Part shown: one piece after another, positions 4,596 through 54,470 of the stretch | Layout: each line of letters opens with the position of its first letter | Position numbering within the stretch: the stretch's first letter is position 1 | Assembly: GCA_029258725.1 (NCBI GenBank) | Contig: JAPDKE010000022.1 | Location: 10,881 to 74,880 of the forward strand | DNA length: 64,000 bases | Source of the DNA: a bacterium | GTDB lineage: Bacteria; Hydrothermota; UBA3072; JAPDKE01 | Direction of reading: 5' to 3' | The notes under the pieces: generated by a model | Told to the model about the DNA's origin: nothing | Databases searched by the model: none | The model's input: the letters and a program-made list of their open reading frames with translations, nothing else | Program-made: the position numbers and the translations under genes

Positions 4596-4604
4596 TTTTA
4601 CCTC

Positions 4605-21576: not shown

Positions 21577-21643
21577 GAGCACATTTATGCTTGACAATAA
21601 AAAAGTTTTTGGATATGGTATCAAAAACAAAAAGGAGGTGTTG

Positions 21644-24893: not shown

Positions 24894-24906
24894 TTTCTCC
24901 TCCTTT

Positions 24907-27900
24907 TTATTTTACAATGACTATCTTCTCTGTATCGGAAACTCTGCCGTTCTCTATTCTCAGGAAGTAAACGCCAGGATGCTCTATGGTGAATTTTGCC
25001 CTGTGATATCCAGCTTTATGAACCCCTCCCTTTATCTTCTTTACCTTCCTCCCAGCACCATCGTACAGGGTGAGACACACATATTCCTTTTGAGGAACGG
25101 TGTAGATAACCGTTACCGCGCCCGCTGAAGGGAGAGGATACACCCTCTCTATACCAAGTCTTAAAGCCACGGGGCCTGTGGACGCCAGAAACGGTCCATA
25201 TACCTTTTTCTTCCCTTCACCCACTGCCCTCAACCTGTAGAAGTAGGTTTTTCCCTTCTCAATATCTGTGTCAAGATAAGAGTATGTATGCCTTCCACTT
25301 CCTCGCCTTCCCGGAATCCGTGCTATAACCCTGTATTCCTTTCCTTTTTCCTTTCTTTCTATTTCCCACCTCTCCGTATTTTCATCCATAACAACCCATC
25401 TGAACATTATTCCTTCCCCGATGAAGTATGCCATAGCAGTTATAAAGTTGAGAGAAAGCGTGGTTTTTGCAAGAATGTATCCTTCATAAGGAAGGAGATT
25501 TTCTCCGGTAACCGTGACAAATACCGTCTCTTCCCTGGAGGGATTGACAGTAAAGACTGCCTCTCCATTTATATCCGTGGTATCTCTAAGATAAACATCA
25601 AAATCTCTGGTGGCAAGTGTAACAAGTGCATCCTCCACCGGAGCCTTTGCCGTGTAAACTTTTACCGTGCACTGATTTGCATTTCCCACCTCAATCTCCG
25701 CAGGATGTGTAACAGAAAGGGCAACAGGAATGTCAGTCCATATCGGTGTCTCAGGGTCTCCAAACAGGGTATGTTCATAAAGAACCCATCTGAAGTAATC
25801 ATCGGATGATGCCGTTGGAACCAGCTGGTCCTTTGCTGCAAAGAACACCTCTCCAAGACGATATAGAGAGGTCCCAAAGAGTTTCCGATAAAACCACACA
25901 CTGAGTTCTCCCGAGGGACCAAGGGCTCCCTCTGGTGACGAGTATCCCCATCCGTACCTTGTGTTCATTCCTGTTCCAATGGCGCAGGAGGTATTTGAGT
26001 TCACCATAACTTCCGCCACACAGTCATATCCCGACGATGAACCAGCCTCATCCAGTGCTCCCATGAAGCATGCTATGGAATTTACAAATATCGTGTTATT
26101 CGCAGGGTTTGTCTGGTTTCCCACATCGGAGTAGTAATAATATATCTCGCTTCCATAATCGTAGTAAATCCCATATTCATTTCCATGCCCCACCCAGTGT
26201 CCTATGCTGAATCCGGAATTTATGGAGTCAAACACAGTATATCGGGAAAGAAGCCCATAATCTTCATAAAGCTTTGCCTTCTTCCATGTATCCGGGACGG
26301 TATCGGCAATTGTGTCATTTATTCCATTCCCATGATTTGTGCTCCAGAGGTTTCCAACAGGAAGCAGTATCTTTCTTATATAATCCGGGTCAGGATTCTT
26401 CTCATAAGCCAGTATCTTCTGGACCATGTTGCTTATCTGGGTTGTATTTTTTACCGGGAATCTTCCCACGTAAACATCCGCATACATATCGACCTGGTCC
26501 GTTGTCTCGCCGTAAACTCCATCCCCATCATAATCCCATGTTCCATCAAGATCTGCATAGTAGAGGTCACATGGAATGGTGTCCTCATCGGAATAGTATC
26601 CGACACCACTTGTCATGCAGTATGCATCCCTTCTGGGCACATACTCCTCACCATGCTCAAAGTCGCACTGCCCTGCAAGGACAACATAAATAACTCCCCT
26701 GTTCACTGCATCTATTATGTAATTCCTTATTTTCTCTGCATTATCGGTTCCGCTGTAATACTTGTATATGGTCTCAACAGGCATTACCGCGGCAGGAACT
26801 CCTTTCTTCGTTTTCCACCATATGAGGTCTGAAAAGGCACTTCTGAATGCCTCAGGAGTTATTATCACATACTCAGTATCCCCTGGCGCTCCTCCACCTC
26901 CTCCACCAGATGCCCAGGAGAAACTCTGGGAATATATATTATCCGTCTCATCACTCTCATCCACGGTATCTGTCGTATCGGCATAGATTTTGAGAGTATG
27001 GGTTCCAGCGGTGAAGGTATCTATGTAATCTTCAACGTATGCATAGTAATTTGGAGGAAGTGTATCACAGTACCATCCTGCTATGGGAATGTCGTCACAA
27101 TAGAGATAAATGTAGAAGTAAAACGCAGTATCAGAACCATTGTTTATTATTGCCCAGTCAATGTAGGTTGTGGAATCCCCCATGAGATTTGGTCCATAAG
27201 TATGTGTGTTGGGTTCAGAAGATGGAACTATAGGACCATCCCATCCGTCAGGAGTATAATAGGTGAGATTTGGCATGCTTGCAGGTTCCCATTCAAGGCT
27301 ATCAATCTCAAATCCCCATCTGGTAACACTGTTATCGCTTTTAAGAACAACCTTCATGTAATTTCCGTCTCCCCAGCTGGTCCAGAAGTTGGTCCCCACA
27401 CTTCCGGTATATGTATTCACAAGATTTCCACTTCCATCGTAAACATATACACTGTCGTAGGAATGTTCTGTTTCAAGCCTTGCAAAGTGAAGTCTCATCC
27501 TTATATCTCCCGCATCCTGTGGTCCGTAAATGAAGTATGCCTGATTAGCATAATCTGGATAGTTGTGGGGAGACTCAACATTGTGCTCACGGAAGAAGTT
27601 GTACCAGTCAGAATACCATCCATAGTCGGTAATACTTCCATCGCTTTTAAGCCTTGTTGCTTCGGTTGGCTGTTTGGTATAATCCTGATTATATGAGGAC
27701 CATTCACTCCACACTCCCCTATGGGTTCCCGTCCAGGTATTGAGCACTGTTGAGGAATCTATGTCATAACAGAAAACCGAATCATAGGAATATTCCGTCT
27801 TTATGGAGTCGTAATAAAATATGAGTTCTCCAATCCAGTCATTTGCAGGACCAGACATGTAAACCGTGGTATCCATGTTATTGAGGTAGGGGTGAGGGGA

Positions 27901-28395
27901 CTCATAGGGTCCGCACCATCCACCAACCTGAATGTAGTTTACATCAAATCCATATTTTGTAACCGATGCGTCGCTCTTTATCCGCACGGTAAAAGTGGGT
28001 CCATCTCCCCAGGATGTCCATGTGGGACCATATGCACCCGTAAAGTAATCCACAAGATCTCCATCATTATCATAGACAAAAACAGTATCGTATCCGCTTT
28101 CAACATCTATCGTATCAAAGTGGATTGTCATCCATACATTTTCAGGAGGTCCATAAACCTTATAGGAAATGTCCATACTGTTCCAGTAGGGATGGGGAGA
28201 AGAAATGTACGCAGGAAGAACAGTACCCTTTGCCCTTTTAATTCTTTCAGTCACAGGATGAGGAGCCACAGGATAGATTGATTGCCCAAAGGACATCCGG
28301 ACCGGTTCCCTTATCTCCTTTACCACCAGGGGTTCCCTTACCTCCTTCACCTCCGTCCTTAAAATGGGTATGGTAAACAAAAGAATGTAAATCAT
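24907..28395 (-). CDS. Secreted C25-family (gingipain/PorU-like) cysteine peptidase with three N-terminal CUB-like domains and C-terminal Ig/FN3 + T9SS-type sorting domain
   Basis: 1162 aa. After the signal peptide come three ~95-aa repeats (ESPHPYPN...YGP...I.L.F..F.TE..YD.V.VYD..G.LV...TG...W.S..........KSD.SVT..GF...Y) that match the CUB fold pattern. The C25 catalytic domain follows (IITPEAF..WK..KG, YVVLAGQ, His in SIGHWVGHGNEYG, Cys in VNSIACFMGALD), and the protein ends with an FlgD-Ig/Por-type CTD (..GVYFLRIENGRVSDTEKIVIVK). Confidence 0.75.
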   Translation of the reverse strand: MIYILLFTIPILRTEVKEVREPLVVKEIREPVRMSFGQSIYPVAPHPVTERIKRAKGTVLPAYISSPHPYWNSMDISYKVYGPPENVWMTIHFDTIDVESGYDTVFVYDNDGDLVDYFTGAYGPTWTSWGDGPTFTVRIKSDASVTKYGFDVNYIQVGGWCGPYESPHPYLNNMDTTVYMSGPANDWIGELIFYYDSIKTEYSYDSVFCYDIDSSTVLNTWTGTHRGVWSEWSSYNQDYTKQPTEATRLKSDGSITDYGWYSDWYNFFREHNVESPHNYPDYANQAYFIYGPQDAGDIRMRLHFARLETEHSYDSVYVYDGSGNLVNTYTGSVGTNFWTSWGDGNYMKVVLKSDNSVTRWGFEIDSLEWEPASMPNLTYYTPDGWDGPIVPSSEPNTHTYGPNLMGDSTTYIDWAIINNGSDTAFYFYIYLYCDDIPIAGWYCDTLPPNYYAYVEDYIDTFTAGTHTLKIYADTTDTVDESDETDNIYSQSFSWASGGGGGGAPGDTEYVIITPEAFRSAFSDLIWWKTKKGVPAAVMPVETIYKYYSGTDNAEKIRNYIIDAVNRGVIYVVLAGQCDFEHGEEYVPRRDAYCMTSGVGYYSDEDTIPCDLYYADLDGTWDYDGDGVYGETTDQVDMYADVYVGRFPVKNTTQISNMVQKILAYEKNPDPDYIRKILLPVGNLWSTNHGNGINDTIADTVPDTWKKAKLYEDYGLLSRYTVFDSINSGFSIGHWVGHGNEYGIYYDYGSEIYYYYSDVGNQTNPANNTIFVNSIACFMGALDEAGSSSGYDCVAEVMVNSNTSCAIGTGMNTRYGWGYSSPEGALGPSGELSVWFYRKLFGTSLYRLGEVFFAAKDQLVPTASSDDYFRWVLYEHTLFGDPETPIWTDIPVALSVTHPAEIEVGNANQCTVKVYTAKAPVEDALVTLATRDFDVYLRDTTDINGEAVFTVNPSREETVFVTVTGENLLPYEGYILAKTTLSLNFITAMAYFIGEGIMFRWVVMDENTERWEIERKEKGKEYRVIARIPGRRGSGRHTYSYLDTDIEKGKTYFYRLRAVGEGKKKVYGPFLASTGPVALRLGIERVYPLPSAGAVTVIYTVPQKEYVCLTLYDGAGRKVKKIKGGVHKAGYHRAKFTIEHPGVYFLRIENGRVSDTEKIVIVK

Positions 28396-31261: not shown

Positions 31262-31300
31262 TTTTTGAAAAATTGTCAAGGAGCCTACTTCCCTTGACAA
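31262..31300. promoter_or_regulatory. Palindromic operator-like elements in the divergent hemerythrin/porG intergenic region
   Basis: TTTTTGAAAAA (31262-31272) and a 9-bp perfect inverted repeat TTGTCAAGG-N10-CCTTGACAA (31273-31300) lie about 60 nt upstream of the porG ATG. Confidence 0.4.
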
Positions 31301-31362
31301 GTCCCCTTTATCCCTTTATACTTGAAAGGACTTTAAAAGAATTTACAAAAGGAGGAGGAAAG

Positions 31363-31944
31363 ATGAAGGATATAATTGAGATAAGATGGCATGGAAGAGG
31401 AGGACAGGGTGCAAAGACTGCTGCACTCCTTTTTGGTGAGGCAGCCCTTGATACCGGAATGTACATTCAGGCATTTCCGGAATACGGTCCTGAGAGAACA
31501 GGGGCACCCGTCCAGTCCTTCAACAGGCTAAGCAAAAAGCCCATAAGGATTCACTCAGGAATAACCAATCCGGATATTGTGCTTGTTCTTGACCCCACAC
31601 TCGTGAAAAAGGTAAATGTTCTTGAGGGATTGCCCGAGGATGGTGTCATCATCATAAACACATCAAAGTCTCCTCAGGAGATAAGAGAGGAACTCGGTAT
31701 CCAGGGGAGAAAGGTTTTCACGGTTGATGCATATGACATAGCAATGAGAACCATAGGGCGTCCCATTCCCAACACTCCCATGCTCGGCGCACTCATAAAG
31801 GCAACAGGGATACTTGACTTTGAAAAGATGCTTGAGTCCGTCCGTGCAAAATTGCAGCGCAAGTTCAGAACCCGTCCTGAGATTGTGGATAAGAACATTG
31901 AGGCAATAAAACTCGCATACCAGGAAACAAAGGGGGAGGAATGA
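31363..31944 (+). CDS. porG: Pyruvate:ferredoxin oxidoreductase gamma subunit
   Basis: Start taken at the ATG preceded by GGAGGAGG. The product (MKDIIEIRWHGRGGQGAKTAALLFGEAA...) has the typical PorG N-terminus. The track ORF from 31132 is an N-terminal over-extension. Confidence 0.9.
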   Translation: MKDIIEIRWHGRGGQGAKTAALLFGEAALDTGMYIQAFPEYGPERTGAPVQSFNRLSKKPIRIHSGITNPDIVLVLDPTLVKKVNVLEGLPEDGVIIINTSKSPQEIREELGIQGRKVFTVDAYDIAMRTIGRPIPNTPMLGALIKATGILDFEKMLESVRAKLQRKFRTRPEIVDKNIEAIKLAYQETKGEE

Positions 31945-32219
31945 AGGAAGGATGGAAGGAACTCCCAATAGGGGCGATAATAAAAGAGGCAGGGTCCAGC
32001 ATAAAGTTTGAAACAGGGGACTGGAGAACCAGAAAACCGGTTCTCAACAAGGAGAAGTGCATAAACTGCCTTTTCTGCTGGGTGTTCTGTCCGGACTCCT
32101 CCATAATCGTTGAGAACGGGGAAATGAAGGGGTTTCTCTATTCCCACTGCAAGGGATGCGGAATATGTGCTGAGGAATGCCCTGTAAAGGCAATTGAAAT
32201 GGTAAAGGAGGAGGTATGA
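31941..32219 (+). CDS. porD: Pyruvate:ferredoxin oxidoreductase delta subunit (2x[4Fe-4S])
   Basis: 92 aa with two ferredoxin motifs, CINCLFCWVFCP and CKGCGICAEECP; coupled to porG and porA. Confidence 0.9.
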   Translation: MKEGWKELPIGAIIKEAGSSIKFETGDWRTRKPVLNKEKCINCLFCWVFCPDSSIIVENGEMKGFLYSHCKGCGICAEECPVKAIEMVKEEV

Positions 32220-33385
32220 AGATAAAGGCATTGACCGCAAATGAGGCAATGGCGGAGGCAATGAGGCAGATAAACCCTGATGTTGTCGCAGCATATCCCA
32301 TAACACCCGCAACGGAGATAGTCCAGCACTTCGCCTCCTTCGTTGCCGATGGGCTTGTAACAACAGAGTTTGTTCCTGTTGAATCGGAGCACTCAGCAAT
32401 GAGTGCATGCATAGGGGCTGCGGCAGCAGGGGCAAGGGTCATGACATCAACCGCATCCCAGGGTCTTGCCCTTATGCATGAGGTTCTTTACATAGCAGCA
32501 GCCCTCAGGCTCCCGATAGTTATATGCGAAATAAACAGGGCTCTTTCTGCCCCCATAAACATACACTGCGACCACTCAGATACATTTGGTGCAAGGGATT
32601 CCGGATGGATTCAGATATACTCTGAGGATTCACAGGAGGCTTATGACTCGGTTATTCAGGCTGTGAAGATTGCAGAGGAGGCATTCCTTCCCGTGATGGT
32701 TACAGCAGATGGATTCATACTTTCCCACGCAATGCAGCGCATTGAGGTTCTTGAGGACGAGGAGGTTAAGGAATTCCTGGGAGAACCAAAGACCCCATAC
32801 ACCGTTCTTGATACCGACAATCCTATAACCGTTGGTCCCCTTGACCTTCAGGACTACTTCTTTGAGCACAAGCGCCAGGAGGCAGAGGCGATGAGGCTTG
32901 CTCCACCGATAATAGAAAAGGTCGGTAAAGAATTTGGAGAAAGATTTGGAAGGTACTACGGGCTTGTTGACCCTTACAGGCTTGAGGATGCTGAGGTTGC
33001 AGTGGTGGTGATGGGCTCAACTGCTGGAACCGCAAAGGAGGTTGTTGATAAGCTGAGGGAGGAGGGTAAGCCTGCGGGACTTTTGAGAATGAGGGTCCTG
33101 AGACCCCTACCACTGAAGGAGATAGTGGAAAATCTCAGGGACAAAAAGGTGATTGGAGTGATGGACCGTGCAGAGGGAATGAGCGGGTTTGGTGGACCGC
33201 TTTATACAGAAATAAGGTCAGGGCTTTACGATGTCCCATCACATCCTCCTCTTTACAACTACATCTATGGACTTGGTGGAAGGGATATAAAGCCCGAGGA
33301 GATTGAGGAGATATTTAAGGAACTCTTTGATGCGGCTGCTGGAAAGGAAATCCCGCTTGTAAACTATAAAGGTGTGAGAGAGTAA
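32216..33385 (+). CDS. porA: Pyruvate:ferredoxin oxidoreductase alpha subunit
   Basis: 389 aa; N-terminal ANEAMAEAMRQINPDVVAAYPITPATEIV is typical of the POR alpha domain. Confidence 0.9.
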   Translation: MKIKALTANEAMAEAMRQINPDVVAAYPITPATEIVQHFASFVADGLVTTEFVPVESEHSAMSACIGAAAAGARVMTSTASQGLALMHEVLYIAAALRLPIVICEINRALSAPINIHCDHSDTFGARDSGWIQIYSEDSQEAYDSVIQAVKIAEEAFLPVMVTADGFILSHAMQRIEVLEDEEVKEFLGEPKTPYTVLDTDNPITVGPLDLQDYFFEHKRQEAEAMRLAPPIIEKVGKEFGERFGRYYGLVDPYRLEDAEVAVVVMGSTAGTAKEVVDKLREEGKPAGLLRMRVLRPLPLKEIVENLRDKKVIGVMDRAEGMSGFGGPLYTEIRSGLYDVPSHPPLYNYIYGLGGRDIKPEEIEEIFKELFDAAAGKEIPLVNYKGVRE

Positions 33386-33396
33386 AGGAGGGAAGG

Positions 33397-34326
33397 ATGC
33401 CTTTTGACCTGAAAGAACTTTCAAAGGAAAAGGACCTCTTTGCCCCGGGCCACAGGGCATGTGCGGGATGCGGTCCCGCAATAGTTATGCGCCAGATAAT
33501 GGCGGTTGCAGGAAAGGATACGGTTGTAGGATTTGCAACAGGATGTATGGAGGTTGTTTCAACCATATTCCCCTATACCGCGTGGAGGGTCCCCTATATT
33601 CATGTTGCGTTTGAAAATGCAGCAGCGGTTATAAGTGGAGTTGAAGCAGCATATAAGGCACTGAAGAGAAAAGGAAAGATAAATAAAAAGATAAACTTCA
33701 TTGCCATTGCCGGGGATGGAGGGACTTATGACATAGGAATACAGGCACTCTCAGGGGCTCTTGAGAGAGGACACAACTTCCTTTATGTATGCTATGATAA
33801 CCAGGCATACATGAACACAGGAATACAGCGCTCAGGAGCAACCCCACTCGGGGCCCACACCACAACATCTCCTGCAGGGGATGTAATTCCCGGGAAGGTT
33901 CAGTGGAGGAAGGATTTGACCGAGATTGTCGCTGCACACGGTATTCCCTATGCGGCCCAGGCATCACCATCCCACTGGAACGATTTGATGGAAAAGGTGA
34001 AGAAGGCACTTGAGACAGAGGGTCCAGCATTCATAAACGTCCTTGCACCCTGTCCTGTTGGCTGGTACTTCTCCCCTGAGCGCACGATAAAGATTGCAAA
34101 ACTTGCCGTTGATACACTCTTCTGGCCCCTTTACGAGGTTGAAAATGGAAAGCACAGGATAACCTACAAGCCCAGGAAACCAAAACCTGTTGAGGAGTGG
34201 TTGAAGGAGCAGGGAAGATTCAGGCATCTCTTTCAGGAAAAGAACAGATGGATAATTGAGGAATTCCAGCGTCAGGTGAATGAAAGGTGGGAAAGGCTTT
34301 TAAGGCTTGAGGAGGCATCCCTTTAA
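33397..34326 (+). CDS. porB: Pyruvate:ferredoxin oxidoreductase beta subunit (TPP-binding)
   Basis: 309 aa with CAGCG and GDGG..DIG TPP-binding motifs. Confidence 0.9.
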   Translation: MPFDLKELSKEKDLFAPGHRACAGCGPAIVMRQIMAVAGKDTVVGFATGCMEVVSTIFPYTAWRVPYIHVAFENAAAVISGVEAAYKALKRKGKINKKINFIAIAGDGGTYDIGIQALSGALERGHNFLYVCYDNQAYMNTGIQRSGATPLGAHTTTSPAGDVIPGKVQWRKDLTEIVAAHGIPYAAQASPSHWNDLMEKVKKALETEGPAFINVLAPCPVGWYFSPERTIKIAKLAVDTLFWPLYEVENGKHRITYKPRKPKPVEEWLKEQGRFRHLFQEKNRWIIEEFQRQVNERWERLLRLEEASL

Positions 34327-34817
34327 TGCCTGACGAACTCAACATCTTTGAAGAGGAATTCTGGTCCATAAAGGGCGTCCTGGAGAAGCTACTCCAGGGC
34401 GCCAATGCAAGGGCTGTCCTTCTGATAGATAAGGCGGGACAGCTCATAACCTCGGCAGGGGATACAACCGGGATAGATGTCCCATCCTTCTCAACCCTTG
34501 CGGCTGCGGATTTTGCTGCAACATCCCAACTTGCCACACTCATAGGAGAGAGTGAGTTCTCCCATCTCTTCCATCAGGGAGAGAAAAACTCCATATATGT
34601 TACACTTGTTGCATCCAAGGTTATACTTGCAGTTATATTTGATAACCGGACAAACCTCGGGCTTGTCAGGGTGAGGGTGAAGCAGGCAGCCTCAGAACTT
34701 GAGGCAATATTCAAGAGAATATATGAAAAACTTGAGAGTGAACTGGGAAGCCCGCTAAAACTTGATGAGGGATTTATTGAGGAGGCGGAGTCAGAACTTG
34801 ACAACCTCTTCAAATAG
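34326..34817 (+). CDS. mglB: Roadblock/LC7 domain protein MglB (GAP of MglA)
   Basis: 163 aa and clearly homologous to Myxococcus MglB ([17 protein letters not shown]...[19 protein letters not shown]). Its start overlaps the porB stop. Confidence 0.85.
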
Positions 34818-34828
34818 ATGGAGGTGAG

Positions 34829-35410
34829 ATGGCTCTCATAAACTACGCATCAAGGGAGATAAACTGCAAGATTGTTTACTATGGGCCCGGTCTCGGAGGG
34901 AAGACAACAAACATAAAGTACATATACTCAAAGATATCTCCCGAGATAAGAGGGAAACTTGTCTCCCTTGCAACAGAGCTTGACAGAACCCTGTTCTTTG
35001 ACTTCCTTCCCGTTGACCTGGGGACTGTAAAGGGATTCCAGGTCCGGTTCCATCTCTATACCGTCCCGGGACAGGTTTACTACAACGCATCAAGGAGGCT
35101 GATTCTTAAAGGAGTCGATGGAATTGTCTTTGTTGCAGACTCCCAGATAGAAAGACTTGAGGACAACGTTGAGTCCATGGAGAACCTGCACGAAAACCTG
35201 GCAACCTACGGTCTCAAACTTGAAAACATTCCGTTTGTTATCCAGTACAACAAGCGAGACCTTCCCAACATAGCATCGGTTGAGGAACTTGAAAGGTTGC
35301 TTAATCCATTGAAGGTCCCCTATTTTGAGGCGGTTGCAATTCAGGGAATTGGTGTATTTGAAACCCTGAAAGAGGTTGCGAGGAGAGTATTAAGAAACCT
35401 CTCGAAATGA
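34829..35410 (+). CDS. mglA: Ras-like small GTPase MglA
   Basis: 193 aa and alignable over the full length to M. xanthus MglA ([48 protein letters not shown]). Confidence 0.9.
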
Positions 35411-36462
35411 AAATTTTATTCCTTCCCCTTTACGGAATAGGGGATACCCTGATGACAACCCCTGCCTTGAGAATTTTAAAAAGGGAAAGACCTGAATGGA
35501 AGGTTCATGTACTTACCATGTTCAAGTCAACCCATGATGTCCTTTTGAGAAATCCATGTGTGGATGAAATAATATTTTTTCCTCTTCTTTCTTCACGATG
35601 GCAGGGATTGAAATTTGCCTTTTCTTTAAGAGGTGAGTACAGGATAACAATAAACCCATACCCATCCAATAGAAGGGACTATAACATCCTTGCCTATCTC
35701 ATTCATGCACCTTATCGTCTTGGGCATGAGTATAAACAGGACAATTTTAAGGAGCTTAATTTTTTGAAAAACATAAGGATAATGGAGGATGATTCACTCC
35801 ATAATGTTGAGGAGAATATAAGATTGCTTGAATTGCTGGGGATAAAATCCAGGGAAAAACTTCCACTTGAACTCCATCTTTCTCCAGAGGAGATTGCATG
35901 GGGGAGAAGATACCTGGAGGAGAGAGGGATTGAGGGATTTCTTGTTGGTTCCCATCCGGGGTCAAGTCTTTTCAAATACCACACGGCAAAGAGGTGGGAT
36001 AAGGAGAAGTTCAAAAAACTTTTTGACATAATTCTTGAGGAAAGAAAAGATGCGAGGATTTTGCTTTTTGGAGGAAAAGAGGAACTGGGATTGAGGGAGG
36101 AGATAAGAAAGATAAACCCTGAAAGAATGCATGTTATTGATACAAAAACCGTGAGAGAAACTGCCGCAATAATGAAAAACCTTTCCATTTTCATAACCAA
36201 CGACTCAGGGGTAATGCACCTTGCTGCTGCATGCATGGTCCCGATAGTTGCAATATTTGGTCCAACAAATCCAGGATGGGTGGGTCCATGGGGTGTTCCA
36301 TCAAGGGTTGTTAGGCTTGGACTTCCATGCTCTCCATGTTTCCGGTACTCTCCAAAACCCATGATATGCTGGGCAAAAAGGAACTATGAGTGTATGAGAA
36401 AAATAGAGGTGGAGGATGTTTACAGGGCTTATCGTTCCCTTACTCGTGAGCTGGGAATATGA
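35407..36462 (+). CDS. Glycosyltransferase family 9 (ADP-heptose:LPS heptosyltransferase-like)
   Basis: 351 aa with GT9 architecture (N-terminal IGD...PAL motif, C-terminal [11 protein letters not shown] and GP.NP). Confidence 0.75.
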
Positions 36463-38344
36463 GGTATTTTACAACCTTGACTCGGTTTATGCATTCGTTC
36501 CTGTAAACGGGAAGGTCCTGTGCGGTTCAAGGGGACTTTACCTTTATCCTGAGAGATTCATTCCTTTTGATGATAAAGTAAGGGACATGAAAATTTCAGG
36601 GGATTCGGTATGGGTCCTCACAAGAAGGAGACTCCTTCTCTATCGGGATGGAGAGGTTATGGAACTCATGAACTTTTCCCCTCCTCTATTTGAATCATCC
36701 CCTCTCTCCTTCGGGATTTATAAAAATAAGGCATGGGTTGGATTTGAGAATGGATACTGGGTGATGGACGGGAGTTTTTATCCCACAGATTTTCCCGTGT
36801 TTTCCATCCTTCCTGGAGAGTCTTTATGGATTGGTGGACCTGATGGGGTTTATAAGGGTGTTCCTGGAGAAATCCAGAAAATTTCAGGAATTGATGATAC
36901 TGTATTTTCTCTCATCAGGTTCAATGACACGCTTTTTGCCGGAGGAAAAGGTATATGGAGGTATGAGAATGGATGGATAAAGGAGGCTGATTACAGGATA
37001 AAGAGATTCAGGATTTATGAGAATCTTTTTGCAGTTGGAGATGATGGAGCGTATGAAAGAAACAATGGATGGAAACTGGTAAATGAGGGAGGAAATGATG
37101 TTCTTGTAAAAGATGGAGAGATATGGGTTGCACGCAATCAGGGAATCTGTGCCGGAAATGAGGAAATATTCCTTCCCTCTCCTGGAAGCGATACTTACAG
37201 GGACATGGAGGAGGACCCATACGGAAACATATGGTTTGTCCATCCCTGGTCTGAACCGGGTTCACGACCTTCAACCTTTTATTATTCCCTGAGGCTCACG
37301 GAATTCACAAAAAAAGGGGAATGGAGAGTTTACAACAGAAAAAGGGAATGGAATGCCCTTGCAAGATTTTATTCAATTGAGACAGATTCTCATGGTCTGT
37401 GGATTGGCCTCTTTCATGCATGGATAGGTTATGCAATACTTTTTATCCCCTATGACAGTATGTTTCCATCCCTGAGATTTACTCTCGAGACGGACGACCA
37501 GAACACAGGGCAGATTTTCCTCTTTAAGGATACCCTCTGGGTCTCCACCATTGTTGAATATGTGGTGATGAAATATTCGGTTGCACAGGATACCCCGGTT
37601 CTTCTGGATATGTTTGCCGGAAAGGATGAGTTTTACAATGTGAGGGCTATTGAAAGGGATGGGGATGGTAATATGTGGTTTGGTTCAAGCCATCCAAATG
37701 GTGGGGTTGGAATAACCGTGATAAAAAAGGATGGAGGGAAAATAAAAGTATCAGGGCTTCCATCCCCATGCATTCTTTCTCTTGCGTGGGACCCGAGGGG
37801 ATGGATGTGGGCTGCAACACTTTCAGGGCTTGTTAAAATAGAAGACTTTAAGGTTTCCGGGGTTTATCGGGATGAGCCTGTTTATGATGTGGAGGTTGAC
37901 CCTTATGGGTATGTCTGGTTTCTTTCATCAAGCGGTCTCTGGCGTCTCACTCCCTCCTTTGAAGAAGAATTCTTTCTCTCCGTGGAAACTGATATAGAAA
38001 AGGCGGGCCTGCTTTATGATTCCAGGGGAAGACTGTGGGCGGGAGGATGTTCAGGGCTTTACTGCATCTATCCTGATGAGAGTGAAAAAAAGCGTGAGGA
38101 ACTCACCATCTATCCAAATCCATGGATTGCAGGCAGGCACTCAGTCGTAAACATAACCTCTCCCGTGGGGGTTCAGGATGCAAGGATTCTCATTTATTCT
38201 CCATCGGGAGAAAAACTTTACGAGGGCTTTTCAGCCCGGAGAATATACTCCCTGGACCCTTCCTTCCTGAGTTCGGGAATTTACATTGTGGTTGCAATAA
38301 AGGATGGAAAGGCAGTAAAGGGAAAACTATGCGTGGTAAAATAA
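36416..38344 (+). CDS. Secreted beta-propeller (two-component-regulator-propeller-like) protein with T9SS-type C-terminal sorting domain
   Basis: 642 aa with repeated DG.IW..T..GL motifs (Reg_prop-like) and a C-terminal CTD (ELTIYPNPW...SGIYIVVAIKDGKAVKGKLCVVK). The N-terminus overlaps the GT9 gene by 47 nt. Confidence 0.55.
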   Translation: MFTGLIVPLLVSWEYEVFYNLDSVYAFVPVNGKVLCGSRGLYLYPERFIPFDDKVRDMKISGDSVWVLTRRRLLLYRDGEVMELMNFSPPLFESSPLSFGIYKNKAWVGFENGYWVMDGSFYPTDFPVFSILPGESLWIGGPDGVYKGVPGEIQKISGIDDTVFSLIRFNDTLFAGGKGIWRYENGWIKEADYRIKRFRIYENLFAVGDDGAYERNNGWKLVNEGGNDVLVKDGEIWVARNQGICAGNEEIFLPSPGSDTYRDMEEDPYGNIWFVHPWSEPGSRPSTFYYSLRLTEFTKKGEWRVYNRKREWNALARFYSIETDSHGLWIGLFHAWIGYAILFIPYDSMFPSLRFTLETDDQNTGQIFLFKDTLWVSTIVEYVVMKYSVAQDTPVLLDMFAGKDEFYNVRAIERDGDGNMWFGSSHPNGGVGITVIKKDGGKIKVSGLPSPCILSLAWDPRGWMWAATLSGLVKIEDFKVSGVYRDEPVYDVEVDPYGYVWFLSSSGLWRLTPSFEEEFFLSVETDIEKAGLLYDSRGRLWAGGCSGLYCIYPDESEKKREELTIYPNPWIAGRHSVVNITSPVGVQDARILIYSPSGEKLYEGFSARRIYSLDPSFLSSGIYIVVAIKDGKAVKGKLCVVK

Positions 38345-38953: not shown

Positions 38954-39303
38954 ACCTCTGATGTTGCGGTGAGGAAGGTATCGGAAGTATAGACATAAAA
39001 CCAGTAGGTTCCAGGAGAGTGGAAGAGAAAGGCAAGGGTATCCCCGAAGGGAACCATCACTTCAGAGCACTCCCTATTTTTCCTCACCATCCAGGGCCAT
39101 ATCTGTATCACAGTATCACTCTGCGTTATGTCGTATCCCTGGAATTCCCAGCAGGGGTCGAGGAGATGTCCTTCAAGATAAAGATAAACCGTGTCCCCGA
39201 GCCTTACGCTTTCCGTTGCCTCCACTTTTTCTATCCTCACAAGTTCCCTCTCTTCCTTTTTGCATGCACAGAGAAGGAGTAAAAGGAGCAGTAATTTACG
39301 CAT
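38941..39303 (-). CDS. Hypothetical small lipoprotein
   Basis: 120 aa with poly-Leu signal peptide and lipobox (LLLLCACK). Confidence 0.45.
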   Translation of the reverse strand: MRKLLLLLLLLCACKKEERELVRIEKVEATESVRLGDTVYLYLEGHLLDPCWEFQGYDITQSDTVIQIWPWMVRKNRECSEVMVPFGDTLAFLFHSPGTYWFYVYTSDTFLTATSEVWIK

Positions 39304-39694
39304 CCTTCACCCCCTTTTTTGCGAGGCGGTCTGCCTCCTTATTTTTTTCTCTTGGAATGTACCTTATCTCCTGCCATGGGAAACTGTAAAAGAGAACCAT
39401 CGCACGCTCATAGAGTTTTTTCAACTCAGGTTCCCTCACTTTATATCTTCTTTTCATCTGCTCACACACAAGTTCCGAATCAACAAACAGATGAATTTTC
39501 CTCCCTCCAAGTTTCTTTGCCTCTTTCAGTCCCTCAATCACCGCAAGATACTCCGCCTGATTGTTTGTAACCTCTCCAACATGCCTTGAAATCTCTGAAA
39601 TTTTCTTTCCTTCTTTATCCTTTATCACCACCCCTATTCCTCCCTTTCCCGGATTCCCGCTTGATGCCCCATCCGTGTATATAAAAAGTTCCAT
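39296..39694 (-). CDS. rnhA: Ribonuclease HI
   Basis: Start taken at the internal ATG (MELFIYTDGASSGNPGKGG...), which abuts the upstream stop. The product has RNase H type 1 motifs (TNN.AEY.A, D at the C-terminus). Confidence 0.85.
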   Translation of the reverse strand: MELFIYTDGASSGNPGKGGIGVVIKDKEGKKISEISRHVGEVTNNQAEYLAVIEGLKEAKKLGGRKIHLFVDSELVCEQMKRRYKVREPELKKLYERAMVLFYSFPWQEIRYIPREKNKEADRLAKKGVKDA

Positions 39695-40407
39695 CAGACA
39701 ACAAAGTCCTTGTGGATAAGTATCCTTCCACAGTACTCGCATGTGTATATCCTCTCTCCCTTCCTTATCTCCTGAAAGTACTGTGGAGGCAAAGTTGCAA
39801 AGCACCCTCCACACATTGCCTCCTCTATAACAACCACTGCAAGCCCTCCCCTTGATACAATAAGCCTTTCATATCTTGCAAGCAATTTCGGGTCAAGCCT
39901 GGTTGATGCCCTTTTTCTTTCGTCTTTTTTAAGCATTATCTTTTCATCAAGCGTTGAAAACTCCTCCTCAAGTTTCTTTTTCTCCTCCTCCATTTTTTTC
40001 TTCTCCTCTATAAGAGCCTTCGTCTCCTCCGCCACCTCCTTTCTTTTCCTGTTTAAATCCTCCTCTATAACCAGGTATTCCATCTCCAGGGTTTCTATCT
40101 TTCTTTTTGAATACTCCATTTCCTTTAAAAGTGCCTGGTATGCCTCGTTTGTCTTCACCTCAAACTGCTGTTTTTTGTAATTTTCCAGTTTCATTTTCTC
40201 CTCCTCAATCTCCCTTTCCGTCTTCAGCCTTCTCTGTTCCAGCAAATCGAGTGTCTTTTTCTTTTCAAGTATCTCATCCTCCTTGTTCTTTATGAGTTCC
40301 TCTATCTCCTTTATCCTTTCAGGGATTTCAACCCTGAGCCTTTCAAGGCGCTGAATCTCAGAGTCAATCTGCTGAAGTGCGTAAAGGTCGCGATAGACTT
40401 CCCTCAT
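39694..40407 (-). CDS. Coiled-coil protein with C-terminal C4 zinc ribbon (COG1579-like)
   Basis: 237 aa with long heptad-rich E/K repeats and a C-terminal CGGC...CEYCGRIL zinc ribbon. Confidence 0.6.
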   Translation of the reverse strand: MREVYRDLYALQQIDSEIQRLERLRVEIPERIKEIEELIKNKEDEILEKKKTLDLLEQRRLKTEREIEEEKMKLENYKKQQFEVKTNEAYQALLKEMEYSKRKIETLEMEYLVIEEDLNRKRKEVAEETKALIEEKKKMEEEKKKLEEEFSTLDEKIMLKKDERKRASTRLDPKLLARYERLIVSRGGLAVVVIEEAMCGGCFATLPPQYFQEIRKGERIYTCEYCGRILIHKDFVV

Positions 40408-40681: not shown

Positions 40682-40903
40682 TCAAGGGGGTTTGTCCTTT
40701 TTTACCCTTTCTACCCTCCACTCTTCCTCTTTCCCCCTTACCCGGTAAAGGTTTCCATCCTCTCCCTTTAACAACCATTCCCTTTCGCCATTCTCAAAAA
40801 GAGAAGAGGAAAGAACCTCAACATAAATCCAACTTTCACCAACTTTTATCATCCTGGGATACTCATCCCCTTTTCCTCCTGAATAAAACCTCACCTCACT
40901 CAT
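40682..40903 (-). CDS. Possible small hypothetical protein (~73 aa)
   Basis: ORF in the 214-nt gap between the large peptidase-like gene and tRNA-Met. The longer track ORF (to 41023) overlaps the upstream gene. I see no recognisable domain and only a weak RBS. Confidence 0.2.
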   Translation of the reverse strand: MSEVRFYSGGKGDEYPRMIKVGESWIYVEVLSSSLFENGEREWLLKGEDGNLYRVRGKEEEWRVERVKKDKPP

Positions 40904-43340
40904 CTCCCTCAAGGGTGAACCTCCATGATAGTTTACCATTCTCCCACAAGAATTCAATTCCTGGCAGAATACCAAACTGACCAAAGGAAAACTTCGTCTC
41001 CAGAACCAATCTTGCACCCGCATATCTCTCTCTTATGTCCCTCTCCATTCCCTCAACCCCACCAAAGAGGGCGAAGAACATGTCTTCAAAGTAAACATTG
41101 GGATTCCACAGACCCAACTTGACCGGTAGAGGGATGGAAATTCCGCACCTCCCACCCCATGTTTCATCATCCCCTCCCCATGCATGGGCAAAAACCTTTA
41201 GATTTCCGAGCCACTTTCTTCCTCCAATATGCATTTCTGCCCTTCCCTTTCCTTCTTTTAAAAACCAGGTATACTCAGGAATCAAATAAAATGAAAGAGA
41301 AGGATAATTCCAGGCAAAGAAGAGATTTCCCTTTACCGTATCCGGTGAGGAAAAATAAGCCCGAACCCACAGAGAAGATAGCCCGTTTCTCATGCTTATT
41401 CTCAGAGGATACTCTCCTCCAGTCCGGTATGTGTAATTCCCTCCACGGTAAAATCCATAATACTCAAACACGAAAGGAGCGAGCATGGTGTTTATATAGC
41501 CAAATCCCACAACATTCTTTCCCGGGATTGTATCCGGAAGGATTACCAGGGCATATCCGTTGGTGAGGAGGACATCTGAGCCTGAGAGAAATACAAAGGG
41601 TAATATCCCACCCTCCATGGACGGAAGAACCATCCACAATCTCAACCAGGGGAAGAGGGTTAAGGCATCCTCAAGCAGTGGAGAGGCATTCCTGAAATAA
41701 GGTTTCCCCACCATCTTCTCTGCTTCCATCATTTCCAGGGATGCTTTTCCCTTAACCTCTGGAGTCTCACGGAACAGATGGATTCCATCCCCCTGTGGGG
41801 AGAAGAAATAGAGTTCACCATCAAGGATTACCGGGTCTCTGGCATAAACATAATCCGTGATTTTTTCAATTTCTCCATCGGGGTCCAAACGATAGATGTT
41901 GTATCTCCCACTGGTTGATGAGAAGTAAATGTATCCATCGTGGTAAAACGGGTCAACATCGGGACGGGATGAACAAATCAAAAGTTCAGACTCTCCATGA
42001 GAAATCCTGTAGATATCCCAGTTCTCACCCGGCATCCTTGCAACCATGAGAATTCCATCCTTCCCCTCCCTTATCTCCCCTATCTCAAGCCCTCCTGCAT
42101 ACCAGGGTTCTTCATCCCCGTACCGGTAAATTGCGTGTCTGGTTGCAAGGAACAGGGTATCCTTATAAAAGGTAAAGGAAACATAGGGGCCACGGGCAAT
42201 TATTCTTTCCGGTCCTCCAATTTCCTTCTCAACCAGAACCGCCTTCACTCCAAATCCCAGAAAACTTCTGTTTTCAAATCCCCTCCCCAGTTCTCCTTCC
42301 AGCACATAAAGTTTTCCATCGTGAATCACAGGTCTTGAGATAACCCATCCCACGGTCCGGTAAAGAGCCTCCTCCTTACAGGTATGGGGGTCAAAAAGGA
42401 CCACCTCCGTTATCCGTGCCACATCAAAGGGACCCCTTTTCTTACAGTATCTTCTAACATAACATATTCCCCAAGGACTCAGGGATGCAAGTTCACGGTA
42501 CATCCCCTTCTCAGTGAGTTTTCCCTGAGGAAATTTCTCTTTTCGTGCCTTGAACATCATCTCTCTCTTCCATATATTGTAAAGCATATCCAGGGTATGC
42601 CCGTAGGTAAAAATTGATGCAAGGTCTATTCCCAGGAGAGGAATAAGATTTCCTATTCCCGGAACCAGGGGATTCCAGGCATAATTCCCGAAAAATCGGG
42701 AAAAGGACTCCTCTCCATAAACCTCTGAGATCCACCTCATAAAACTCCCGCCATAGAAATATATCCTCTCCAACGGAAAGTCCGAGGCATCCGATGCTGC
42801 CCTCACAGGTGAGGTTATTTTACCCTCCCTTGCCTGAGCAAGAACCACCGCATCAAGATATCCATCGTTAAGCCTTCCTGCGTATGGGGAAATCCTTGAC
42901 TCGGCATAGACCGTGATTCCCTCAACCACCCATCCAGGAGAGTACATGTTTGGCTGGAAGAGGTCCCCCCATAAAAATCTCTGCAGGCTTGACAATCCTG
43001 CGGTATGGGTGAGGTGTGAGATGTGGGTGTATTCGTGAACGGATACAAGTTTCCACCAGTCGGGGGTTGAGGTGAGGATAAAGGGGGATGGAGGATGGGG
43101 AAGGAGGTGGATCTGGGGATTTATCGGGCTTGCAAATCCATTCGGCACAATTCCGGCATCTTCAATCACAACCGGAACATGTTTTGGAGAGTTACCGGTA
43201 AGGGAGTCAACCATTGGTTTGTAATGCTCAAGACAGGATATGGTCCACTCTGCCTCTTTCCTCAACTCCGGAGGATAGAATACCGTGAAGTGTTCGGAGC
43301 GGATTGCGTCCCAGAAAAGGTAAGAAAAAAGGAATATCAT
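40896..43340 (-). CDS. Large envelope protein with N-terminal HExxH zinc-metallopeptidase-like domain, central TolB-like beta-propeller and C-terminal beta-rich domain
   Basis: 814 aa. The zincin motif is VSVHEYTHISH. The central region has WD40/TolB-like repeats (YRISHGESELLICSSRPDVDPFYHDGYIYFSSTSGRYNIYRLDPDG). The start overlaps the MFS stop (ATGA). Confidence 0.5.
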   Translation of the reverse strand: MIFLFSYLFWDAIRSEHFTVFYPPELRKEAEWTISCLEHYKPMVDSLTGNSPKHVPVVIEDAGIVPNGFASPINPQIHLLPHPPSPFILTSTPDWWKLVSVHEYTHISHLTHTAGLSSLQRFLWGDLFQPNMYSPGWVVEGITVYAESRISPYAGRLNDGYLDAVVLAQAREGKITSPVRAASDASDFPLERIYFYGGSFMRWISEVYGEESFSRFFGNYAWNPLVPGIGNLIPLLGIDLASIFTYGHTLDMLYNIWKREMMFKARKEKFPQGKLTEKGMYRELASLSPWGICYVRRYCKKRGPFDVARITEVVLFDPHTCKEEALYRTVGWVISRPVIHDGKLYVLEGELGRGFENRSFLGFGVKAVLVEKEIGGPERIIARGPYVSFTFYKDTLFLATRHAIYRYGDEEPWYAGGLEIGEIREGKDGILMVARMPGENWDIYRISHGESELLICSSRPDVDPFYHDGYIYFSSTSGRYNIYRLDPDGEIEKITDYVYARDPVILDGELYFFSPQGDGIHLFRETPEVKGKASLEMMEAEKMVGKPYFRNASPLLEDALTLFPWLRLWMVLPSMEGGILPFVFLSGSDVLLTNGYALVILPDTIPGKNVVGFGYINTMLAPFVFEYYGFYRGGNYTYRTGGEYPLRISMRNGLSSLWVRAYFSSPDTVKGNLFFAWNYPSLSFYLIPEYTWFLKEGKGRAEMHIGGRKWLGNLKVFAHAWGGDDETWGGRCGISIPLPVKLGLWNPNVYFEDMFFALFGGVEGMERDIRERYAGARLVLETKFSFGQFGILPGIEFLWENGKLSWRFTLEGDE

Positions 43341-44488
43341 ACTGCTTCCTTTACAAACGCAAACAGTGTAAAGGATGCAAGAAAGGCAAGCACCGCGCCA
43401 AAGAGAAATGCATGGAGTTCACCGAAGCGCTGCCAGATAAAACCAAAGATAGCACTTCCAGGAAGGGCAGAAAGACCTACTGCAAGATGATATAGTCCGA
43501 ATGCCGTTCCTCTTTCTTCCTCCTTTGCAAGGTCTGCAACAAATGCCTTTTCAACCCCTTCTGTCAGACCAAAGTATATCCCGTAAAGGGCAAAGAGGGC
43601 CCATATATGCCAGTTTTTGTTTGAAAGACCGAAACCAAGGTAAATCAGGGCATAAACCATCCATCCTGCAATAATAACTCTTCTTCTGCCGATTCTATCA
43701 GAGAGGAGTCCTCCTGGGACCGAGGTCAACACCTTTACCAGGTGGAGGAAGACCCATATTAAAGGAAGAAATGCAATCTTTATCCCTGTGTTCTGTGCCT
43801 TTAAGAGCAAAAACGCATCGGAGGAATTTCCAAGAGTAAAGAGAATTAACGAGAGAAGATAAAGTCTGAAGTTCATTGAGACAGGTCCAAGCCTCCATGA
43901 AGTCTTTTTTATACTTTCCCCAGCCTTTTCCTCCACAAAAAATATAAGAATGAGAAGTGCGAGGATTCCTGGAATGAATGCAAGGAGGAATAAATGCCTC
44001 AGGTCCATCCCAAACCCGAGTATCATCCACACTGCAAAAAGGGGACCAAGAACCGCACCGAGATGGTCCATTGCCCTGTGGAATCCGTATGCAAATCCCC
44101 TTACCTCAGGAGAGGTGGAATCCGCAATGAGCGCATCTCTGGGTGAAGTCCTTATCCCCTTCCCAACTCTGTCAAAAAATCTTATCAAAAGCACATGAAT
44201 CCAGGAGGTTGCAATTCCTGTGAGGGGTCTTCCAAAAACCGCAAGGGAATACCCTGCAACAACAAGCCCCTTTTTCTTTCTTATCCGGTCGGAAATATAT
44301 CCCGAGAAAAATTTTAAAATGCTTGCTGTTGTTTCCGCTATCCCCTCTATAACCCCGAGAACAAACGCCCCTGCACCAAGAACGGAAGAAAGAAATGCAG
44401 GAAGTAAAGGATAGATTATTTCACTTGCCGCATCATTAAAAAGACTGACAATCCCGAGAGAAACGACATTTTTTGAGAGTTTTTTCAT
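43337..44488 (-). CDS. MFS transporter
   Basis: 383 aa with 12 predicted TM segments and MFS signature loops (GYISDRIRKKKG; LSDRIGRRR). Confidence 0.8.
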   Translation of the reverse strand: MKKLSKNVVSLGIVSLFNDAASEIIYPLLPAFLSSVLGAGAFVLGVIEGIAETTASILKFFSGYISDRIRKKKGLVVAGYSLAVFGRPLTGIATSWIHVLLIRFFDRVGKGIRTSPRDALIADSTSPEVRGFAYGFHRAMDHLGAVLGPLFAVWMILGFGMDLRHLFLLAFIPGILALLILIFFVEEKAGESIKKTSWRLGPVSMNFRLYLLSLILFTLGNSSDAFLLLKAQNTGIKIAFLPLIWVFLHLVKVLTSVPGGLLSDRIGRRRVIIAGWMVYALIYLGFGLSNKNWHIWALFALYGIYFGLTEGVEKAFVADLAKEEERGTAFGLYHLAVGLSALPGSAIFGFIWQRFGELHAFLFGAVLAFLASFTLFAFVKEAV

Positions 44489-45102
44489 TCCTCCTCCACG
44501 AAGAAACTGAGATACTCAAGTTCCATTGTGAGGTCAACATCGTGAATAAATACACCTGGAGGAGATTTTATACTGGCAGGGGTAAAATTCAAAATTCCCT
44601 GGATACCCGCATTTATTAGAATACCGGCAATATCCGGAGCAACATCAGGAGGCGTTGTAAGAATGGCAATCTTTATCCCCATTTCCCTTACAACCCTTGA
44701 AATTTCACAATCAGAATATACCGGAACCCCATGAATTCTCCTCCCCACCTTGTTTATATCGGCATCAAATGCAGCAACTATCTCGACCCTCTTTCTGAAA
44801 AATGGGGAGGCAAGAAGGGCAGTTCCGAGATTTCCAGCCCCAATAAGTATAGCCCTCCTCGGTTTTTCTATCTTCAATATTTTTCTCAATTCTTTTATCA
44901 ATTTTTCAATCTCATAACCCATCCCCCTCTTCCCCATCTTTCCGAAGTAAACCAGGTCCCTCCTTACCTGGGTATCAGTGAGGTCAAGCCTTTCAGCAAG
45001 TTCCTTAGAGGATACATACTCCTTTCCCTCTTTCTTCAGTCTTTCCAGGAGATGAAGATAAAAACACAATCTTTTAACCGTAGCAGGAGGTATCCTTCCC
45101 AT
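44485..45102 (-). CDS. rex: Redox-sensing transcriptional repressor Rex
   Basis: 205 aa. It has the N-terminal winged helix (IPPATVKRL.FYLHLL) and a Rossmann NADH-binding domain (AILIGAGNLGTAL), and is collinear with B. subtilis Rex. Confidence 0.85.
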   Translation of the reverse strand: MGRIPPATVKRLCFYLHLLERLKKEGKEYVSSKELAERLDLTDTQVRRDLVYFGKMGKRGMGYEIEKLIKELRKILKIEKPRRAILIGAGNLGTALLASPFFRKRVEIVAAFDADINKVGRRIHGVPVYSDCEISRVVREMGIKIAILTTPPDVAPDIAGILINAGIQGILNFTPASIKSPPGVFIHDVDLTMELEYLSFFVEEE

Positions 45103-54440: not shown

Positions 54441-54470
54441 AAATAAAATTCTGTAAAAAAAGGAGGTCTT

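Follow-up and report, generated by a model that had tools for sequence, protein, structure and literature searches.

The porB-mglB junction in a compact bacterial gene string and its likely origin in a conserved housekeeping array

MglA and MglB form a nucleotide-dependent polarity switch, which in the bacteria studied so far determines the placement of type IV pili and gliding machinery. In Myxococcus xanthus they are encoded in an mglBA operon, mglB before mglA with a short gap between them. In Geobacter sulfurreducens, the one functional Por is encoded by GSU0097 (PMC2233667), MglB by GSU0098 and MglA by GSU0099 (PMC2825233); there, a pyruvate:ferredoxin oxidoreductase (PFOR; POR in subunit names), mglB and mglA are consecutive by locus tag. 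A dnaX-recR-mglA synteny, with ybaB/DUF149 after dnaX and mglB before mglA, has also been noted for deltaproteobacteria (Milner et al. 2014, PMC3983030), where the passages on recR, dnaX and synteny name no PFOR between recR and mglB. Here we describe a string of eight genes in a 64,000-nucleotide (nt) stretch of contig JAPDKE010000022.1 (the whole stretch is hereafter called the window), in which mglB begins on the stop codon of the PFOR gene porB. We find that por-mglBA alone is conserved, and that its junction is inherited and widespread, not peculiar to this organism. For the string as a whole, we somewhat favor a reading in which a remnant of an inherited por-mglBA array has been squeezed by genome compaction and is probably carried on one transcript, with the coupling of its genes limited to shared expression.

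By direct reading of open reading frames (ORFs) and junctions, the string fills positions 31363-38344 of the + strand, with eight ORFs head to tail in the order porG-porD-porA-porB-mglB-mglA-GT9-propeller (gene maps here and below are ORF-based):

31363-31944, + strand: porG (= porC), POR gamma subunit, 193 amino acids (aa); PF01558 153 bits, TIGR02175 221.6 bits (cut-off 81.1)
31941-32219, + strand: porD, POR delta subunit, 2x[4Fe-4S], 92 aa; NF040684 PorD_Arch 121 bits (cut-off 120), TIGR02179 112.8 bits
32216-33385, + strand: porA, POR alpha subunit, 389 aa; POR_N 252 bits, PFOR_II 101 bits, PorA_Arch 510.5 bits (equivalog cut-off 550)
33397-34326, + strand: porB, POR beta subunit, binding thiamine pyrophosphate, 309 aa; NF008819 PorB 414.7 bits (cut-off 405)
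34326-34817, + strand: mglB, Roadblock/LC7 GTPase-activating protein (GAP) with C-terminal helix, 163 aa; Robl_LC7 and M. xanthus MglB matches
34829-35410, + strand: mglA, small GTPase of MglA Group 1, 193 aa; M. xanthus MglA match at 290 bits, 67% identity
35407-36462, + strand: glycosyltransferase of family GT9, 351 aa; PF01075 96.6 bits
36416-38344, + strand: Reg_prop beta-propeller protein, 642 aa; Reg_prop 62.9 bits, TIGR04183 24.5 bits

ATGA overlaps join porG to porD, porD to porA and mglA to the GT9 gene. The porB stop and the mglB start share a single base (TAATG), with a GAGGAGG Shine-Dalgarno sequence 10 nt upstream of mglB, and the 11-nt gap between mglB and mglA holds GGAGGTGA. 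The GT9 and propeller genes overlap by 47 nt, with GAGGTGGAGG just 5' of the propeller start; because the repeats of the propeller already appear by about residue 25, the start is ATG 36416 or GTG 36446 and the overlap is real. On its 5' side, the string is separated from a divergent hemerythrin gene (- strand) by a region of 128 nt, and on its 3' side a convergent gene ends at 38345, abutting the propeller stop with zero gap. An initial annotation of this DNA had proposed the same eight genes and the same TAATG, ATGA and 47-nt junctions, all of which we could confirm by reading the sequence directly, and its family assignments for the string genes hold in Pfam and NCBIfam scans.

The mglA product matches M. 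xanthus MglA with 290 bits and 130/193 = 67% identity, so the earlier estimate of about 65 percent was correct. Its score against Thermus thermophilus MglA is 267 bits, whereas the best eukaryotic-type GTPase (Arf1) reaches only 26 bits; this is a true MglA and not a generic Arf-like GTPase. The hallmarks of Group 1 MglA have been defined (Wuichet & Sogaard-Andersen 2014, PMC4316618), and residues 78-82 of the window protein read TVPGQ, the Group 1 G3 motif in which Thr replaces the Asp of Ras. In the alignment, this motif, D52-R53-T54 (the Arg finger beside the G2 Thr), the P-loop GPGLGGKTT and NKRD are the same as in M. xanthus MglA. These residues place the protein in Group 1; MglB-stimulated GTP hydrolysis and a role in polarity or motility, which also mark that group, are predicted for it.

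MglB scores 52.1 bits against Robl_LC7 (PF03259, cut-off 23) and is encoded 11 nt upstream of mglA. It matches M. xanthus MglB (6izw_B) over residues 3-162 with 146 bits, and its C-terminal SELDNLF aligns with DDIDNLF in the C-terminal helix of the M. xanthus protein (the M. xanthus MglA and MglB structures cited as comparison are 5ymx, 6izw, 6h5b and 6hjm). It misses NF052242, the equivalog model of Thermus-type MglB, at 98.9 bits against a cut-off of 200; that model is narrow, and the window MglB is closer to the Myxococcus type. Judged from their sequences, both proteins are true family members. NCBI already names the string proteins likewise, for example 'gliding-motility protein MglA [bacterium]' (RKZ23531). 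The locus shares the mglB-mglA order and short gap with the M. xanthus operon, and differs from it in that mglB begins on the porB stop codon with no promoter-like site before it and in that the host is not a myxobacterium. In Pfam scans covering the 64-kb window, we found no RomR/RomX, SgmX or Frz partners and no motility machinery.

The initial annotation had found it surprising to meet MglA outside Myxococcota and Bacteroidota. This view has to be given up, as MglA is documented in at least 12 phyla, a list from which Bacteroidetes is missing. When the window MglA was compared with species-representative genomes, the matches listed included relatives of 59-76% identity in Gemmatimonadota, WOR-3, Myxococcota, Nitrospirae, Thermodesulfobacteriota, Eisenbacteria, Acidobacteriota and other phyla, and relatives of 60-86% identity are plentiful in Gemmatimonadota, WOR-3, Nitrospirota, Eisenbacteria and others. 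The closest labelled MglB relatives, among the matches listed, come from candidate division WOR-3, TA06, Zixibacteria and Edwardsbacteria (59-66% identity). This similarity suggests that the organism is near the WOR-3, TA06 and Zixibacteria candidate lineages, and the many sorting domains of the type IX secretion system (T9SS) in the window point the same way.

By Pfam and NCBIfam, porG, porD, porA and porB encode in one cluster the gamma, delta, alpha and beta subunits of a 2-oxoacid:ferredoxin oxidoreductase (OFOR) of the pyruvate/2-ketoisovalerate type. At the level of NCBIfam pyruvate equivalogs, PorB (414.7 vs 405) and PorD (121 vs 120) pass, and PorA (510.5 vs 550) and PorC (212.9 vs 270) just miss. 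The enzyme may have a related 2-oxoacid specificity.

The initial annotation had read the tight junctions of the string as a sign of functional coupling. This does not follow once the rest of the window is considered. In a crude ORF map, 32/41 same-strand junctions of the window are at most 15 nt long, 27/41 are overlaps, the median gap is -4 nt, and about 97% of the DNA is coding. At 49748-59171, for instance, in a second heterogeneous string of this genome, nine co-directional unrelated genes are joined mostly by 4-nt overlaps: they encode a cNMP-binding protein, an OmpA-family protein with CarboxypepD_reg repeats, UvrD, YebC, RuvC, RuvA, RuvB, and glycosyltransferases of families GT2 and GT4. 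Tightness in the string is not above the background of this genome, and its fused look stems from compaction.

What does set the por-mglBA junction apart is its recurrence. Among the loci listed (given here by our locus numbers, L), the por-mglBA adjacency, with differing flanks, spans at least six deep lineage groups. The nearest lineages, L091 and L092, have MglB proteins 71% and 65% identical to that of the window and porB/mglB gaps of 11 and 1 nt. The porGDAB-mglBA order also occurs with unrelated flanks in L011, in L100/101 and in a group of five loci around L098 (including the listed L129/133/134/138), in a Nitrospirota-type group (L054, L156, L160, L060), and in Eisenbacteria (L113, L131 and the complete genome L180, CP070702.1). 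In the Myxococcota loci L053 and L063, por and mglBA are adjacent in divergent orientation. In L017, por-like genes of 39-49% identity form an operon 3 kb before mglB, which we did not count as linked. When porB-centred metagenome contigs with enough downstream sequence were examined, the first gene after porB was mglB, followed by mglA, in 10/51 of the loci listed, which makes mglB the commonest first downstream neighbor (10, vs 5 for the next family).

The flanks of these blocks show no such constancy. An all-against-all BLASTP of flank ORFs at the loci listed found no family common to three or more lineage groups, and by Pfam the genes downstream of the blocks are heterogeneous. Pairwise identities of PorAB and MglBA are correlated (Mantel r = 0.70, reached in 0/5000 permutations), so the por-mglBA block has largely co-diverged, the Myxococcota pair excepted; our tree is a neighbour-joining sketch. 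At the loci listed, a porB/mglB gap of -1 to 11 nt is confined to the window's own clade, and gaps of 31-201 nt, sometimes with promoter-like sequence, are found elsewhere.

These data bear directly on the alternative that por and mglBA became neighbors in this genome by pure chance. With about 97% of the window coding, any neighboring pair would look fused. The same adjacency nevertheless recurs in many distant lineages and with three enzyme architectures, and MglB is the most frequent downstream neighbor of related porB genes at the loci listed. The comparative data refute a chance origin, which we regard as highly improbable.

Viewed from mglBA, the junction belongs to a larger arrangement. 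The gene directly upstream of mglB is recR in 53, a PFOR or OFOR gene in 14 and another gene in 18 of the 85 informative MglA- or MglB-centred loci listed; the recR cases include nearly all Gemmatimonadota and many Myxococcota among them. An array dnaX-ybaB-recR-mglB-mglA-(pgpA)-cinA-(recA) is conserved in Gemmatimonadota, Myxococcota, Eisenbacteria and Nitrospirota (most of L012-L090), well beyond the deltaproteobacteria. Where PFOR is present, it often lies exactly between recR and mglB, and three architectures occur there. The four-subunit enzyme (gamma-delta-alpha-beta) occupies this place in L054, L160, L131 and L180, and a five-subunit type (epsilon-alpha-beta-gamma-delta) does so in L181, Candidatus Manganitrophus sp. 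SB1. A single-chain NifJ-type PFOR is found upstream of mglB in L067, L074 and L084 (TIGR02176 1831 bits for L067 and 1715 bits for L074); in the first two it lies exactly between recR and mglB, and the L084 contig ends inside the PFOR gene. In L180 (Eisenbacteria), L181/L054/L160 (Nitrospirota) and Desulfuromonadia-like loci, por-mglBA is thus the inner part of the array whose dnaX-recR-mglA synteny was noted earlier. Like the string, the Geobacter-related loci L067, L074 and L084 carry PFOR, mglB and mglA on one strand. Unlike the string, Geobacter has the single-chain NifJ enzyme and not the four-subunit one, and the PFOR-mglB gap in these three loci is about 190-440 nt by tblastn coordinates, with no overlap.

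Either partner can also occupy the array by itself. The recR-por order without mglBA is common (L120, for example, reads recR-por-pgpA-cinA-recA), and Gemmatimonadota have recR-mglBA-cinA without por. In the window's lineage, recR, ybaB and dnaX are not upstream of the block, and cinA and recA are not downstream of it.

In two of the compared loci, one labelled Nitrospirae (L060, 1173-6243) and one from Myxococcota (L053, 3007-6107), NuoE-, NuoF- and NuoG/Fdh-like genes flank the por genes that lie beside mglBA. The two loci have them on different sides of por, and a flavin-based bifurcating module is likely. In the nearest relative, L091 (1290-2425), a Zn_ribbon_9/CT398-like gene and an RNase H gene are directly upstream of porG and co-directional with it. 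The same pair is found in the window at 39296-40407, about 1 kb downstream of the string and on the opposite strand, which indicates local rearrangement around the por-mglBA block.

A second alternative takes the recurrence of the junction as the mark of selection on the pair itself. PFOR and MglAB would be an anciently selected couple in which polarity or motility is tuned to, or acts on, pyruvate and ferredoxin metabolism, wired through obligatory co-expression or direct interaction (for instance, an energy-state-dependent control of polarity or motility), and the mglB start on the porB stop codon would be its tightest example. The adjacency, seen between unrelated flanks in at least six deep lineage groups and persisting after both flanks were scrambled, fits this idea, and so does the porB/mglB gap of -1 to 11 nt across four lineages of group G1. 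The three PFOR architectures beside mglB are non-orthologous, a pattern that resembles in-situ displacement, typical of functionally constrained neighborhoods. In L053 and L063, moreover, a por cluster of another clade (46-49% identity) lies divergently beside an MglBA with 72-75% identity to the one of group G4. Yet each partner is found in the array alone (por in L120; mglBA in all Gemmatimonadota and most Myxococcota loci), the WOR-3 and TA06 relatives have mglBA elsewhere, and among the loci listed, links of por with recR are no rarer than links with mglBA. Membership of both por and mglBA in one old array explains their adjacency. The gap in G4 also has a promoter-like site of its own (TTGAAA-17-TATATT). 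A literature search on a link of POR with MglA or of Roadblock proteins with OFOR, on PFOR-mglBA adjacency and on MglA in WOR-3 returned nothing relevant, no paper linking POR with MglA among them, and no biochemical rationale is known. On this evidence we consider selected functional coupling unlikely.

The last two genes of the string differ from the others in their distribution. The GT9 protein is a clear family member (Glyco_transf_9 96.6 bits, cut-off 22), with 3tov as its best PDB match (90 bits) and 54 bits against WaaF (1psw). It was initially called a heptosyltransferase. The family part of this name stands, and the activity part does not reach equivalog level, with heptosyltransferase II at 100.8 vs 134.6, III at 92.5 vs 170.2 and I at 55.7 vs 185.3; since all three models are missed, 'heptosyltransferase' is here a family label and the activity only predicted. 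The propeller protein carries a T9SS type-A C-terminal sorting domain at about residues 565-642 (nt 38108-38341), which passes TIGR04183 (24.5 vs a cut-off of 23) and stays below the Pfam Por_Secre_tail cut-off (20.1 vs 27). In an alignment, it shares YPNP, IYD..G and SGIY motifs with four other C-terminal domains of the window; the earlier description of a propeller with a C-terminal tag is upheld by the TIGR04183 match and these motifs, with the Pfam score below its cut-off. At the N-terminus there is a short hydrophobic run with no basic n-region, an unconvincing signal.

Contigs with an identical MglA, from the same species in several metagenomes, all retain the eight-gene order. Among the loci listed, GT9 and propeller genes were never found after mglA outside this species, and in several relatives mglA is followed by a gene of the other strand. 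The coupling of central metabolism and polarity to envelope glycosylation that the initial annotation had drawn from this layout is thus not sustained. We also considered glycosyltransferases after mglA as a recurring theme and set this aside; only two groups have them, and the families differ (GT9 in the window, GT2/GT4 in L098/L129). In the strain variants L003 (8567-10496) and L004 (8290-10219), two ORFs of 370 and 258 aa stand in place of the single propeller gene, a split also found in the NCBI records RKZ25980/RKZ25981. The C-terminal half of the propeller in these variants is 88% identical, and the other seven genes are 99-100% identical. This pattern points to a surface protein in rapid evolution or in decay.

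How the string is transcribed depends on the signals at its start and along its length. A promoter-like site lies in front of it, together with a repeat:

31294-31322, + strand: sigma-70-like promoter TTGACA-17-TATACT, 11/12 consensus matches (consensus match only)
31273-31300, no strand assigned: 9-bp perfect inverted repeat TTGTCAAGG-N10-CCTTGACAA, one exact match in the window vs 0.04 expected

The porG start is 41 nt downstream of the promoter-like site, with the Shine-Dalgarno sequence AGGAGGAGG between them. A consensus scan found no further sigma-70-like match from the end of this site (31322) to 34599, which leaves mglB without a candidate promoter of its own. Given the promoter-like site before porG and the empty interval behind it, the simplest reading, and a plausible one, is that at least por and mglB are co-transcribed from the por promoter. 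A simple terminator scan found no site at any junction of the string, and its + strand matches all lie within genes. The same scan found no match at the 3' end of the string, and its + strand count (14) equals that of shuffled sequence (10.0 +/- 3.4); absence of a terminator is for both reasons weak evidence in this genome. The initial annotation's remark that there are no intervening terminators can be accepted in that none convincing lies inside the string, with the same reservation. An Rfam search gave no regulatory RNA for the region; its matches were three tRNAs elsewhere.

The string could instead comprise several transcription units (for example por, mglBA and GT9-propeller) with internal promoters in upstream coding sequence, the overlaps then reflecting compaction only. 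Promoter-like sites do occur in mglB (34599-34627), mglA (34901) and the GT9 gene (35545-35573, with an extended -10 TG), and relatives with longer porB-mglB gaps (L156/L160, L054) have promoter-like sequences there. Since unrelated genes overlap everywhere in this genome, long heterogeneous strings may need internal promoters. These matches are nonetheless at chance level, with 10 sigma-70-like matches found vs 11.9 +/- 3.8 expected, and neither the candidate-free stretch before mglB nor the terminator-free junctions mark a boundary between units. The stop-start overlaps with good Shine-Dalgarno sequences, finally, indicate translational coupling and hence a shared mRNA. We think it doubtful that the string is divided in this way.

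The reading that we somewhat favor, that of an inherited and compacted array remnant, can be laid out as follows. The genome is the very compact one of an uncultivated anaerobe, and the string is a composite of three functionally separate units: PorGDAB, a Group 1 MglA with its MglB GAP, and two envelope genes, for GT9 and for a T9SS-sorted propeller. By comparison with other lineages, the por-mglBA junction would be the core that has survived from an old and widespread array, dnaX-ybaB-recR-[PFOR]-mglB-mglA-[pgpA]-cinA-recA. This lineage would have lost both flanks of the array, on the recR side and on the cinA side, and compaction would have shrunk the intergenic space to a 1-nt overlap, with GT9 and the propeller as neighbors specific to this species. 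From the layout, transcription of all eight genes most likely starts at the single promoter before porG, and translation probably proceeds by stop-start coupling. The coupling of these genes would then consist in shared expression with a core catabolic operon, and not in a biochemical interaction of POR with MglAB. Mixed-function housekeeping operons of this kind are familiar from rpsU-dnaG-rpoD. Like por-mglBA, that operon has a conserved co-directional linkage of genes with biochemically unrelated roles, interpreted as coordinated expression, and by analogy a similar interpretation may apply here.

Several points weigh against this reading. The por-mglBA pair survives the scrambling of both flanks in G1, L011, G3 and L060, and three PFOR architectures occupy the same slot beside mglBA, which suggests selection over passive inheritance. 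Promoter-like matches are present inside the string at 34599, 34901, 35545 and 35764, at chance frequency, and our promoter scan used a sigma-70-like consensus that may not follow this lineage's own rules. The locus tallies, in addition, are samples, among the matches listed, with several loci hand-picked through MglB homologues, and lineage labels are as given by the submitters.

The inverted repeat at 31273-31300 is placed so that its two arms take in one -35 hexamer each, from the divergent promoter-like sites of por (+) and of the hemerythrin gene (-). Contigs of this species alone carry the repeat, and other lineages lack it. It is possible that the repeat is a shared operator of both divergent promoters. 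Because a Rex gene is found at 44485-45102, we considered control of the por promoter by Rex and rejected it; the palindrome has a 10-nt spacer and a TTGTCAA half-site, which we take not to fit a Rex operator.

For the window itself, the result is mostly corrective, as its genes are ordinary members of known families and are so named by NCBI. The comparison has a by-product of wider use. MglBA is usually seen as a motility module that stands by itself. The loci compared here show it as a member of a deeply conserved housekeeping array, and in many anaerobes it lies directly behind pyruvate:ferredoxin oxidoreductase, whatever the architecture of that enzyme. As Geobacter has the same arrangement, a tie of MglAB expression or function to central metabolism is directly testable there. 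The arrangement also calls for caution, since por (GSU0097) mutants could be polar on mglBA.

Elsewhere in the window, four further large proteins have T9SS C-terminal domains (24300-28395, 45181-48993, 59164-61665 and 61716-63944). They include a C25 (gingipain-like) peptidase, in front of which lies a separate ORF resembling Propeptide_C25, and an S8 peptidase of 1270 aa; the remaining two, of 833 and 742 aa, have no other confident domain. At 40896-43340 on the - strand, an ORF of 814 aa without a Pfam family at E <= 1e-5 lies upstream of genes for a major facilitator superfamily (MFS) transporter and Rex on the same strand (43337-45102). Six co-directional genes at 20389-24328 have almost no Pfam matches; the weak exceptions are a DIE2/ALG10-like match in the first and TPR/DUF5683 matches in the last two, and the fourth is YidD. 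Finally, a four-gene cluster resembling a cytoplasmic NiFe-hydrogenase occupies 2578-6478 on the - strand, with a large subunit, an Oxidored_q6 small subunit, a NAD_binding_1 plus DHODB Fe-S protein and a Fer4_22 protein. It resembles a group 3 (sulfhydrogenase-type) enzyme, which would be consistent with a fermentative anaerobe.

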